DNA from: an uncultured Prevotellaceae bacterium
GTDB taxonomy: Bacteria > Bacteroidota > Bacteroidia > Bacteroidales > Muribaculaceae
Direction of reading: 5' to 3'
Length of the DNA: 64,000 nt
Assembly: GCA_900318255.1 (NCBI GenBank)
Contig: ONJX01000018.1
Location: forward strand, 5,598 to 69,597
Shown: positions 8,990 to 24,734 of the stretch, in pieces
Numbering within the stretch: the stretch's first letter is position 1
Layout: every line of letters starts with the position of its first letter
Notes under the pieces: model-generated
Seen by the model: the letters and a program-made list of their open reading frames with translations, nothing else
Told to the model about the DNA's origin: nothing
Databases searched by the model: none
Position numbers and translations under genes: made by a program

Positions 8990-9057
8990 AAATCAGGCTG
9001 CGTCTCGGAAAAGCTCAAGTAAACTTGGCTTTTCACTCAACTTGCACTGATTTTGCG
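8990..9057 (+). repeat. Dispersed intergenic repeat of the family targeted by the IS110
   Basis: ATAAATCAGGCTGCGTCTCGGAAAAGCTC..TTGCACTGATTTTG aligns with the reconstructed IS110 empty site ATAAATTAGGCTGCACCTCGGCATA..TTGCACTAATTTTTG; the same 3' end recurs near 24690-24706. Confidence 0.6.
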
Positions 9058-9166
9058 GTTTTCTGTCGCAAAACTACACTCAAAGTTTGGTTGACGAAAA
9101 GACACAAAAAATAGTTAATTAAACTTATAAAATAAGGTGTCATAATAGTAATCACAATTTTTTGCT

Positions 9167-9174
9167 TATTTTTG
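9167..9174 (+). promoter_or_regulatory. -7 promoter box for the retron operon
   Basis: TATTTTTG matches TAnnTTTG about 30 nt upstream of the ncRNA. Confidence 0.55.
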
Positions 9175-9205
9175 TAAAAAATTGTATTTAATCAATTTTA
9201 ATATT

Positions 9206-9345
9206 GAGCGACAAGAAATAAATTTCAAGCTTTGATTCGGATTTTCCGAATTAGTTTACTGGTATCGGTAAATAGAAATTAATGTATCAAAGTGTACCAA
9301 TCAAACCTTTCAAGGAAAGCAAATTATTTTATTTCTTTGTCGCTC
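9206..9345 (+). ncRNA. Putative retron msr-msd RNA
   Basis: Terminal inverted repeats GAGCGACAAGAAATAAA (9206-9222) and TTTATTTCTTTGTCGCTC (9328-9345, one bulged T); internal hairpins TTCGGA-TTT-TCCGAA, TTTACTG-GTAT-CGGTAAA, CTTTC-AAG-GAAAG; ends 14 nt before the RT ATG. Confidence 0.8.
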
Positions 9346-9359
9346 TTTTTTCTTAAAAA

Positions 9360-22053: not shown

Positions 22054-22094
22054 AACACAAGGTGACACCCGCAGTTGTGGTGTCACCTTGTGTT
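22054..22094. terminator. Hairpin terminator between convergent genes
   Basis: AACACAAGGTGACACC/GGTGTCACCTTGTGTT perfect stem. Confidence 0.75.
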
Positions 22095-22186
22095 GCTAAG
22101 AAGGCAATAATTGCGCCTCCCCGAGATTCTTAAGGCTTGAGCGTGAACGCCTTGCGGTGGCTGCGCTCGTGCCAGTTTTTAGTGGG

Positions 22187-23050
22187 TCAGAAGATTTTAT
22201 AGGCTAAGCGTATTTGTATCATGGGGTAGGCACTGAACCATGATATGAAATGCGTGATGCCCGACTCCTTGGAGGTGGACTTGATTTTCTTGCCGCTGTT
22301 GAACTGAAATTGCGGAGAGCCCCAGAACAGGAGCCCTGCATCAACGGCGACGCTCAGGCGGTGGTGGCGTGCCATGCTTTGCCCGAAGCCTATGCCCAGA
22401 TAGGGCTTCACTGCCCATGTCTTCATCTTGACGTCGATGTTGTAGTTCTCATCGGCGGTGAACACATAGTCTCCAAACTTGAGTCCCACTGGTGGATAGT
22501 TGGTGTGGAACAGGCTGTTGTAGTCTTCCACCTTTTGATTAGCATCATAGAGCGATTGCAGCGCGCCGTCGTTGGTGTTGCGGAAGTGCAGGAAGGTGCG
22601 GTTGCCGGCAAAGACTCCTGCCGCGAAATAGAATGGGGTGGGGAAGGGATGCACCTCGGCCATGATGAATGCGTTCCAGAAGCGCGGTTTGAGGGCCAGT
22701 TCCACCTTGTCAACCATCTTGGCCTGCTTGATGGCGTCGTCCTCTACGAGTTGCATCTGCGTGATGTTGGTTGCGGTGTTGATGGCCTTGAACTTGATGT
22801 CGCCCACGGCATTGCCCACGAAGCCGGCACGCACGGTGACGATGCGGTGCAATGGCATGGCCACATCAATGCCGGTGCCTCCCAGGCCCGTCTGCAGCCC
22901 CACTGCTAGGTGGTTCAACATGCCGTTCTCACTGTGAAGTTTCAGGTTCTTGTTCTCTTGCGCCCCTGTAGCAGGAGTCAAGAGTGCTATTGCCGCAGCC
23001 ACTGCCAGCACGCGGCAAAACTGTGATATAGAAAGTCTAAACTGTTTCAT
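22187..23050 (-). CDS. Outer-membrane beta-barrel protein
   Basis: Signal peptide; GTGIDVA, KPYLGIGFG, YPMIQIRLAYKIF terminus. Confidence 0.8.
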   Translation of the reverse strand: MKQFRLSISQFCRVLAVAAAIALLTPATGAQENKNLKLHSENGMLNHLAVGLQTGLGGTGIDVAMPLHRIVTVRAGFVGNAVGDIKFKAINTATNITQMQLVEDDAIKQAKMVDKVELALKPRFWNAFIMAEVHPFPTPFYFAAGVFAGNRTFLHFRNTNDGALQSLYDANQKVEDYNSLFHTNYPPVGLKFGDYVFTADENYNIDVKMKTWAVKPYLGIGFGQSMARHHRLSVAVDAGLLFWGSPQFQFNSGKKIKSTSKESGITHFISWFSAYPMIQIRLAYKIF

Positions 23051-23062
23051 GACGCATGTTGA

Positions 23063-24313
23063 TTATTTGAAAAATTTCTTGTTTGACATCACAAGCAGGT
23101 TGGTAAGCGACTGGCTGCGTGGATAGAAGCCGTAGAGGTAGTCGCTAGTGTAAGGAGTGCCGCCGTTGATGATGCAGCGCACATAGTCGTGGCACGACAT
23201 GTCCATGGGCATAATGCCCACTGTGCCCTCGTTGGCAAGCAGCTCTTCAATCACCTTGGGGTGAAGGTTAGAGGCGTTGGTGATGTATCCTCGCGCCGAC
23301 ACTTCGGTATAGGCCGAGCAGTGGTTCACAATCCAGATGTTCTCGTCGCTGGCGGTGGCTTCGCGCGCGCTCTTCATCATGGCGAGCACGGTGGCTATCT
23401 TGGTTGCCATGCGCTTCTCGCTAGTGGTCTTGTAGTAGTCTTGCTTATAGAGTGTGGCTCGGATGCTGGGGTCTTCCATGTTGTAGATGGCGCAGTTGCG
23501 CTGTTGCTCGGGGTGTACCTCCTCATCTACGTCAGGGTCCTCGTCGGGCCAGTCGCAATAGGCAACGGGATAGTGGAATGCGGGGTTCACAGGGCGCAGG
23601 TCGTAGCGGCTAAGCCACAATATCTTGCCTCGCATCTCGCCCACGGTGATGTCGGGACGCCAGTTCTCTACAAACAGCCCTTGGTACTTGGGCATCGAGA
23701 GCACCTTGTTGAGCAACACAGTCCAGTTTTGCTGGCTTTCCATGCCATTGTCGGCTTGTATCTTCACGATGAAGAACTCCGAGGGGTGCGACTTGAGGAA
23801 CTGTTGCATCCAGTCGATAGACTGCTCGAGCGACACATTCACCTCGGTAAAGCCGTGAGCCAAGCGCAGAATCTGGCGGTCTTCGGGCTTCTGGGCAAGG
23901 GTGTCGATAGCCACCACAGGACGGAAGTCGAAGAAGCGGATGCCACTCGACATCTGCTCGTCAAAGGTCGAGACCTGGCTGATTGCCATGATGTTAGAGA
24001 AATACTTGACAACCGGGGTGTAGAAGCCCATGCCGGTCATGCTGTCGTGGGTGCCGGGGATGCTGAGCTTGCACACCTTCACGTCGTCGCGCACTAGCGA
24101 GAGCCAGTCGGTCAGTGGCGTGGAGAGTTGATAGGGGTACTGGATTTCGTCTTGGTAACCTTCGGTGAAGAGGTAGGGTGCGTCGAGCGACTTGTCGTCG
24201 TAGTAGGGCAGCCCGTTGTCTTCGTCACAGCTGGTCAACAGTGTGGCTCCGAGCGTTGCCAGTGTCAAGATAATGGAGAAACTCCATCTTGTGTGTTTGA
24301 AATTGATTTTCAT
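23063..24313 (-). CDS. Phosphatidylinositol-specific phospholipase C (X-domain) lipoprotein
   Basis: LSIPGTHDS and GIRFFDFR catalytic motifs, LAHG; LLTSC lipobox. Confidence 0.85.
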   Translation of the reverse strand: MKINFKHTRWSFSIILTLATLGATLLTSCDEDNGLPYYDDKSLDAPYLFTEGYQDEIQYPYQLSTPLTDWLSLVRDDVKVCKLSIPGTHDSMTGMGFYTPVVKYFSNIMAISQVSTFDEQMSSGIRFFDFRPVVAIDTLAQKPEDRQILRLAHGFTEVNVSLEQSIDWMQQFLKSHPSEFFIVKIQADNGMESQQNWTVLLNKVLSMPKYQGLFVENWRPDITVGEMRGKILWLSRYDLRPVNPAFHYPVAYCDWPDEDPDVDEEVHPEQQRNCAIYNMEDPSIRATLYKQDYYKTTSEKRMATKIATVLAMMKSAREATASDENIWIVNHCSAYTEVSARGYITNASNLHPKVIEELLANEGTVGIMPMDMSCHDYVRCIINGGTPYTSDYLYGFYPRSQSLTNLLVMSNKKFFK

Positions 24314-24734
24314 ACGCTTTAGAAAATTGGGTTTATATTCGTTGCATGGTGTAAAAAACGTTATTGACAATGCTGAAATCGCATTTATTGAGTTTTCATA
24401 AGAGTAATTTTTGCAAAGTTACAAAAAATTCGCAATATAGGCTGTCTCGCGCTATATCTTTTTAAGTAGTAGTTTACATTTCTTGCCAAGCATCGTCGTC
24501 ACTCGCGGTAGCGGCGAGTGCGACGCCTCAAGTCTGGAGTTGGGAGATTGTGGGCACTTCGCGCCCCCCCAAAAAAACAACTAATTCTCATGATTTTCGC
24601 AATAAAACAGTGCGTGGTGGTCGCTTCGCTTAGAATTTAGCGAAAATCAATTATAGAAAAAACTTCGTGTTTCATTTTGTTTTTCTCTCAACTTGCACTA
24701 ATTTTGAGCGCTATTTGTAAAAAAACACGATACT

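Follow-up and report, generated by a model that had tools for sequence, protein, structure and literature searches.

Insertion sequences (IS) of the IS110 group that are directed by a bridge RNA into host repeats of the repetitive extragenic palindrome (REP) type are already established, with IS621, ISPpu9 and ISPpu10 as the described cases (PMC11208160, PMC12288879). The current work concerns a stretch of 64,000 nt, here called the window, from an uncultured bacterium of the Muribaculaceae, probably a gut inhabitant. It corresponds to positions 5598-69597 of contig C14 in a genome (G000) of 3.15 Mb, with 58 contigs and 49.7% G+C. On the minus strand of the window, at 20130-21573, lies an IS110-group insertion sequence, and it interrupts one unit of a dispersed intergenic repeat. 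The best overall explanation, which we regard as highly probable, is an IS110 element whose left-end bridge RNA is programmed for the 5' motif of the repeat and which inserts at GGCKGCRYCTC/GG (the slash marks the insertion point), the repeat itself being a hairpin with a promoter-like 3' half.

IS621 of Escherichia coli has the same two-domain recombinase, and its left end shares the order of hairpin, target loop and donor loop (PMC11208160, PMC11208158). In both elements the sense of the left guides is that of the top strand, with the right guides antisense to it, and in both a palindromic, intergenic repeat present in multiple copies serves as the target. The element of the window differs from IS621 in its occurrence in Bacteroidota, in an unrelated target sequence and in an extra conserved module at its right end. 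IS621 and ISPpu10 have a CT core at both junctions, whereas the window IS has TC on the left and AC on the right, with one shared base. ISPpu9 and ISPpu10 of Pseudomonas putida (PMC12288879; bioRxiv 10.64898/2026.03.19.712850) resemble it in that all copies reside in one repeat family and the target can form a stem-loop. ISPpu9 also has a small RNA (sRNA) gene, ssr9, downstream of its transposase gene, with solo copies elsewhere, which parallels the right-end module described below. In Pseudomonas, insertion is into REPs that are short, GC-rich and often arranged as convergent pairs, and CT is duplicated; here, in contrast, the unit is long and AT-rich and carries a promoter consensus facing gene starts.

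A literature search for a comparable repeat in Muribaculaceae or Bacteroidota returned only a loose analogue, BrickBuilt, a MITE (miniature inverted-repeat transposable element) from Porphyromonas gingivalis (PMC4596501). BrickBuilt is likewise an intergenic, tandem-repeat-containing element of Bacteroidales with small inverted-repeat ends and promoter elements. It is built of 23-nt tandem bricks plus subunits called leader and tail, and its promoter activity is bidirectional, whereas the repeat studied here is a hairpin of 68-86 nt oriented toward the gene; the abstract of the BrickBuilt paper does not mention targeting by IS110. The window IS and its repeat are undescribed in the literature searched, and the targeting principle is known from E. 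coli and Pseudomonas. What this work adds is a Bacteroidota member of IS110 whose target family is new and whose core is atypical, and the repeat is a less ordinary part of the finding than the IS.

The IS110 element and its insertion site

The boundaries of the IS were drawn from the family consensus and from a filled/empty pair of sites, giving a length of 1,444 nt that includes one ambiguous base: the C at 20130, which can be assigned either to the IS or to the target. Read on the minus strand, the IS begins with TTTTATTTTTGCAGTCGG (21573) and finishes with TTTCCTATAATAC (20130), without terminal inverted repeats and without a 2-bp duplication. It encodes a transposase/recombinase of 332 aa (P0001; 20331-21329, minus strand) with the N-terminal DEDD RuvC-like domain and the C-terminal Tnp domain of the IS110 family (Pfam DEDD_Tnp_IS110, PF01548, 6.7e-21; Transposase_20, PF02371, 3.2e-14). 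Matches of this protein in phmmer to ISCro4 (9t56, 1e-26) and IS621 (8wt6, 1e-24) span residues 3-322 of 332. One full copy of the IS is present in this genome.

Both flanks of the IS can be read as parts of the same long-form repeat unit. The left target (21574-21593, minus strand) is GATAAATTAGGCTGCACCTC, which equals positions 2-21 of the repeat family consensus and holds the stretch to which the left target guide corresponds. The 3' part of the unit lies at 20064-20129 on the minus strand (nhmmer long model positions 21-83, 36.4 bits). Read from 20129 to 20064, it starts with GGCATAAAA / GGCATAAAAAATATAAAAAC, contains the central AT-rich hairpin followed by TTTG-N20-TAATTTTTG, and ends with TTGCACTAATTTTTG / GGTTTGCACTAATTTTTG. 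Joining 21593-21574 to 20129-20064 on the minus strand restores one long-form unit of ~85 bp, as expected from an earlier note on this DNA, which had claimed that excision of the IS rebuilds the repeat but gave no strand for the IS.

Every assembled junction of the IS and of its 87-100% relatives lies at one position, GGCKGCRYCTC/GG, and in all cases the IS has the same orientation with respect to the unit. In a search of 401 genomes of the bacterial family, only the genus of the window yielded the IS left end (G000, G120 and G367). In the congeneric genome G120, three left junctions at contig ends all read ATAAATTAGGCTGCGCCTC/TTTTATTTTTGC, and five right junctions all read CCTATAATAC/GGAAA..., continuing into long or short units; an ATG triplet follows ~10-35 nt past the unit end in four of these five. 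Metagenome contigs supply three copies (L120, L122 and L123). L120, with a 100% identical transposase, and L122 (87%) have both junctions at the same position, and the right flank of L123 (76%) is a variant repeat unit. The flanks of L120 are 98% identical to C29:87906-90457 of this genome, where the unit is uninterrupted (C29:89161/89162), and the comparison of filled and empty site gives an insertion of 1,443 nt plus one ambiguous C, again with no 2-bp duplication. The earlier note had proposed checking whether all copies of the IS lie inside the repeat; in the window, G120, L120 and L122 all assembled junctions indeed share the same base and orientation. Together with the dispersal of the repeat family, these junctions support its suggestion that the IS uses a Bacteroidales repeat as a multi-copy target.

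An empty site for the window copy was not found, the flanking genes being non-syntenic in G120, G098 and G181. Nor was one found for the G367 copy (the same locus as L049), this genome having unrelated sequence in the orthologous intergenic region. The short-read contigs of G120 end exactly at IS ends (L005, L026, L031-L033, L041-L043), and the IS body is absent from the assembly. Because the body is missing from assemblies like this one, the IS copy number in such metagenome-assembled genomes is underestimated, and the points at which the IS and the repeats break short-read assemblies of these genomes are predictable.

The predicted bridge RNA and the right-end module

The left end of the IS (21330-21573, minus strand) is predicted to form a bridge RNA. 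The fold of these 244 nt (minimum free energy -68.1 kcal/mol, z = -3.3) consists of a 5' hairpin and two stem-loops bearing internal loops, the putative target-binding and donor-binding loops; the region has no Rfam match at E up to 1. Guides were defined as in PMC11208160, where a left guide has the sequence of the top strand, its pairing partner being the bottom strand, and a right guide pairs with the top strand. All four candidate guides lie on the minus strand. The left target guide, GGCUGCGCCU (21474-21483), has the sense of the target top strand and matches the left flanks of G120 exactly over 10 nt; a 10-mer match to the left target was reached in 10 of 5000 shuffles. The right target guide, (U)UGCCG (21455-21460), is complementary to C+GGCA of the right flank. 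The left donor guide, CUAUAAUAC (21407-21415), repeats the final 9 nt of the IS exactly; 71 of 5000 shuffles reached a match of this length to that end. The right donor guide, UAAAAGU (21373-21379), is complementary to AC+TTTTA, which spans the right-end/left-end junction expected in a circle, and this complementarity across the joined ends indirectly supports a putative circular form.

Five left ends were aligned (G000, L120, L122, L121 and L050). The scaffold is conserved, both donor guides are invariant, and it is chiefly the two target-guide segments that differ. L050 and L121, with a transposase that is 80% identical, have GUUGCACCU as left target guide and ACACCG as right target guide. 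These guides match their own flanks, which are GTTGCACCT and GCTGCACCT on the left and C/GGTGT on the right. The sequence occupied by L050 and L121 is a different repeated one, with ..AAAG(T/C)TGCACCT.. on the left and GGTGTCG(C/A)AAAGCCTGCTT.CGCAGGAATTATT on the right, and it is a second repeat target of the same IS lineage. The spacing from the left-target match to the junction is one base longer there than in the window element. The L050 site is bordered by short tandem GGAATCA-type repeats.

Judged from these alignments, the changes of the target guides that track changes of the target are the signature of a programmable bridge RNA. At the level of prediction, two features of IS110 elements are present: an upstream non-coding RNA with two guide-bearing loops, and target guides that covary with the target on a constant scaffold.

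A conserved module of ~55-75 nt lies in the right end of the IS (20194-20268, minus strand; ATGAAAAACACCGAGGGG...GGGGGCGAGCAGCCCCC...GAGCG). Its layout is ATGAAAAACACCGAGGGG..GCCAAGCGGCAAGGGGGCG-loop-CCCCG..GAGCG, and the hairpin loop is variable. With blastn, four further copies were located without the IS in this genome (C21:91066-91134, C35:32339-32415, C58:12-74 and C51:11-73), and 11 other genera of the family also have the module, in 20 other genomes (loci L002-L030), often at contig ends, positions which suggest that it is multi-copy. No Rfam match was obtained at E up to 1. A reading of the module as a small open reading frame (ORF) was disfavored by an in-frame TAG at the hairpin loop in several copies; given the variable loop, sometimes with this in-frame TAG, the module is probably structural rather than coding.

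The target repeat

A combined regular-expression and nhmmer search of this genome identified 58 non-overlapping units or fragments of the repeat at 40 loci. The long form of ~83-86 nt (alignment A1) has the consensus GATAAATTAGGCKGCRCCTCGG-(AT-rich hairpin)-TTTTGT..CTCGGYTTGCACTAATTTTG, and the short form of ~70 nt (alignment A2) has a different central hairpin. Units are 68-86 nt long overall, with 27-34% G+C at long-form matches, and head-to-tail arrays of 2-3 units with a period of ~83 nt are common. A scan of 151 genomes from 35 genera of the bacterial family with covariance model R1 found the repeat in 60 genomes and 20 genera, with up to at least 29 matches per genome; Rfam has no match to it at E up to 1. 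The dispersed repeat family that the earlier note had proposed, together with a genome-wide count of its motif, is therefore borne out by these copies. A third form, or an insertion near the IS landing point, is seen at C39:5655-5745, C19:19290-19382 and C55:103-195. These three units have the usual 5' motif GGCTGCGCCTAGG and the usual 3' promoter half, and their center is another, GC-richer segment of ~60 nt, AAAAATGCGATTGAGCGAGACAAAGCTGAGCTTGCTCAAAGCC...

All long units fold end to end as an imperfect hairpin. In A1, pairing holds for 91% of cells, a share that drops to 43-55% once the partners are slid, and the covariation score of 0.166 (shuffles, 0.080) was equalled in 0 of 500 shuffles. 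In A2, compensatory double changes occur in 14 of 22 predicted pairs. Among these are the outer stem AAATTAG/CTAATTT and a triplet following GGCKGC, whose partner precedes TTGCAC (ACC/GGT, GCC/GGC, GGC/GCC, GGT/ACC). The 7-bp outer stem might represent terminal inverted repeats of the kind that characterize MITEs. A clean filled/empty pair for a repeat unit, from which a target-site duplication might be read, was not found at the orthologous loci compared within the genus.

The housekeeping promoter consensus of Bacteroidota consists of a -33 TTTG and a -7 TAnnTTTG. The 3' half of the unit, TTTG-N19-TAATTTTG, matches this consensus at the motif level. TTTG is invariant in all 27 aligned long units, and the strict pattern TTTG-N19-21-TAnnTTTG occurs in 29 of the 58 copies, these being part of its 320 matches genome-wide. 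The conservation of the unit exceeds the two boxes of the consensus, extending to CTCGGYTTGCAC and the 5' motif, and the -33 box doubles as the 3' arm of the central hairpin.

The placement of the repeat was assessed against gene starts taken from crude ORF-based gene calls. At 32 of 38 loci the repeat points at a same-strand gene start, and 26 of 38 lie no more than 100 nt upstream of one, where 7.6 were expected and the maximum in 2,000 random intergenic placements was 16. The earlier remark that the repeat often sits just upstream of gene starts holds by this count. Between co-directional genes, 12 arrays run with the gene direction and 2 against it. At several loci (C43:54201-54210, C46:18869-18878, C36:17378-17387 and C31:62750-62759) an ATG follows only 5-7 nt after TAATTTTG (TAATTTTGCAACATG); if TAATTTTG is a real -7 element, the mRNAs at these loci would be leaderless or nearly so. 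The motifs suggest that the 3' half of the repeat is a promoter facing the adjacent gene. Twenty downstream proteins were scanned, among them RuvX, TsaD, a DEAD-box helicase, a sulfatase, a UDP-GlcNAc 2-epimerase, an AraC regulator and a BspA-type surface protein. They are functionally unrelated, so the repeat does not mark one regulon, and the idea of a single regulon was rejected.

The copies differ in number between related genomes. Units at unlinked loci are up to 95-99% identical, and array neighbors as little as 68-77%. The orthologous C43 locus has three units in this genome and one each in G120 and G181. Before ruvX there are two full units and a fragment in this genome, half a unit in G120 and none in G181, G141 and G098; in G141 and G098, ruvX stands directly after the upstream gene.

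Two other units lie in the window, and GGCTGCRYCTCGG with at most one mismatch occurs 3 times there against 0.15 expected. The uninterrupted relative that the earlier note placed near 8990-9057 is an intact short-form unit at 8986-9056 (plus strand; nhmmer short model, 75.4 bits over the full length; a row of alignment A2). It is located in a divergent region ~300 nt upstream of, and pointing toward, a gene for a 444-aa reverse transcriptase (RVT_1; 9360-10694, plus strand), and it may supply a promoter to this gene. The recurrence of the 3' part noted near 24690-24706 belongs to a 5'-truncated unit at 24656-24707 (plus strand; model positions 33-84, 39.7 bits). This unit ends with TTGCACTAATTTTG, 27 nt before the ATG at 24735 of a pantothenate-kinase-like gene (Pfam Fumble).

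Proposed mechanism and competing explanations

According to the proposed mechanism, the target loop would be programmed for the conserved 5' motif of the repeat (left target GGCTGCGCC-TC, right target GGMA), and the donor loop for the joined ends of the IS itself. The recombinase would insert the IS in one orientation between C and GG of GGCKGCRYCTC/GG in any suitable unit, through a circular intermediate and RNA-guided strand exchange as in the analogous IS621. Within the unit, the IS enters at position ~21; the central hairpin and the -33 and -7 boxes all lie downstream of this point, and the gene-proximal 61-66 nt are retained. Because the IS lands upstream of the -33 box, the downstream gene keeps the promoter-like half, which would make many units low-cost landing sites. 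For the "safe harbour" of the earlier note, the anatomy of the insertion fits, with the promoter-like half staying with the gene; that the insertion is harmless is something we infer. In arrays such as that of L120, ~25 nt separate the -7 box of the preceding unit from the IS left end downstream of it, and one may speculate that this box drives the bridge RNA from the integrated copy.

Several observations weigh against this mechanism. There is no CT core on both sides: the target and the left junction have TC, the donor and the right junction have AC, and the C alone is common to them. Both bases of AC are matched by the donor guides; of TC, the T alone is matched by the left target guide and the C alone by the right one. 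The unit of the window copy, GGCTGCACCTC, has one mismatch to the left target guide (a possible G-T wobble), the unit of L120, GGCGGCGTCTC, has two, and four perfect-match GGCTGCGCCTCGG units in this genome are unoccupied by the IS. In G367, where the right flank is unassembled, the left flank ATAAAATCGACAGCGCCTC/ matches the 5' part of the repeat at 15 of 20 positions. A junction model with a CT core was rejected, the junctions it predicts not being observed in G120 or in the L120/G000 pair, and one shared C is favored; the core dinucleotide shared by both junctions of IS110 elements is not seen in the filled/empty pair.

Other explanations of the flanks and of the repeat were weighed against the same data. 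The same 20 nt on the left and related sequence on the right of all copies might mean that the flanks are part of the mobile element and are carried by it, instead of being a pre-existing target. This is extremely improbable, with 58 units standing without any IS in this genome, the repeat present in 20 of 35 genera against 1 of 35 for the IS left end, and right flanks of different subtypes, long and short; the uninterrupted unit that is the exact empty site of L120 refutes it. The repeat might also be the shared promoter architecture of a regulon, a transcription-factor site (e.g. GGCKGCRCCTCGG) plus a promoter that neither duplicates nor moves, with the IS merely recognizing the operator. 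Such a view accommodates the promoter consensus in the 3' half and the position before gene starts, and it is nevertheless unlikely: it does not account for tandem arrays of 2-3 units with a regular period, for unlinked units more alike than array neighbors, for presence and copy number that differ at orthologous loci within the genus, for downstream genes without a common function, or for hairpin pairs that covary even where the -7 box is lost.

An intergenic imperfect palindrome in a genome that encodes proteins with a Y1_Tnp domain calls to mind a REP or bacterial interspersed mosaic element (BIME) mobilized by a REP-associated tyrosine transposase (RAYT), the more so as REPs are the classical targets of IS110 elements (PMC12288879). 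Elements of that type are GC-rich palindromes of 20-40 nt with a GTAG or CGTC head and a repeat-flanked RAYT. The units have a length of 68-86 nt and are AT-rich, no GTAG or CGTC head was seen in them, and they face gene starts rather than follow gene ends. None of the 9 Y1_Tnp matches in the genome is flanked by the repeat, the nearest unit being ~800 nt from one of them; the RAYT link was rejected on this ground, and we consider this origin very unlikely. That the hairpin works as RNA, whether as a 5'-leader or inter-unit stem-loop, an sRNA, or a terminator or insulator, with the promoter likeness being secondary, is a doubtful reading that nonetheless deserves some weight. The covariation supports pairing, and in arrays a transcript from one unit would start with the hairpin of the next. 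On the gene-sense strand, G-U cells outnumber A-C cells (37 vs 20), a weak bias among non-independent copies that is insufficient to choose between an RNA and a DNA hairpin. The AT-rich stem is unlike an intrinsic terminator, Rfam offers no match, and single units would be transcribed only by read-through.

An IS110 element programmed for the repeat remains the preferred explanation, and a broader scenario may tentatively be built on it, as a possibility rather than an expectation. The repeat could be a "portable promoter" cassette, mobilized in trans and spread through the bacterial family, that places or multiplies promoters before unrelated genes. The bridge RNA would be tuned to the most conserved motif of this cassette, giving the IS many harmless landing sites, and in tandem arrays the IS would also come to lie directly downstream of the promoter of the preceding unit, which would drive both bridge RNA and transposase of the inserted copy.

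The rule known from Proteobacteria, that the bridge RNA of an IS110 element is programmed for a host repeat, is extended by this work to gut Bacteroidota. Two related bridge RNAs with different target guides and two different repeat targets make up a natural guide/target set, and a junction chemistry that differs from the CT-core model is relevant to the engineering of bridge recombinases. For the host, the repeat is possibly more important than the IS, as it provides 29 of the 320 strict promoter-consensus matches of the genome. Its copy number varies at orthologous loci, and it may therefore be a source of transcriptional rewiring in this poorly studied family of gut bacteria.

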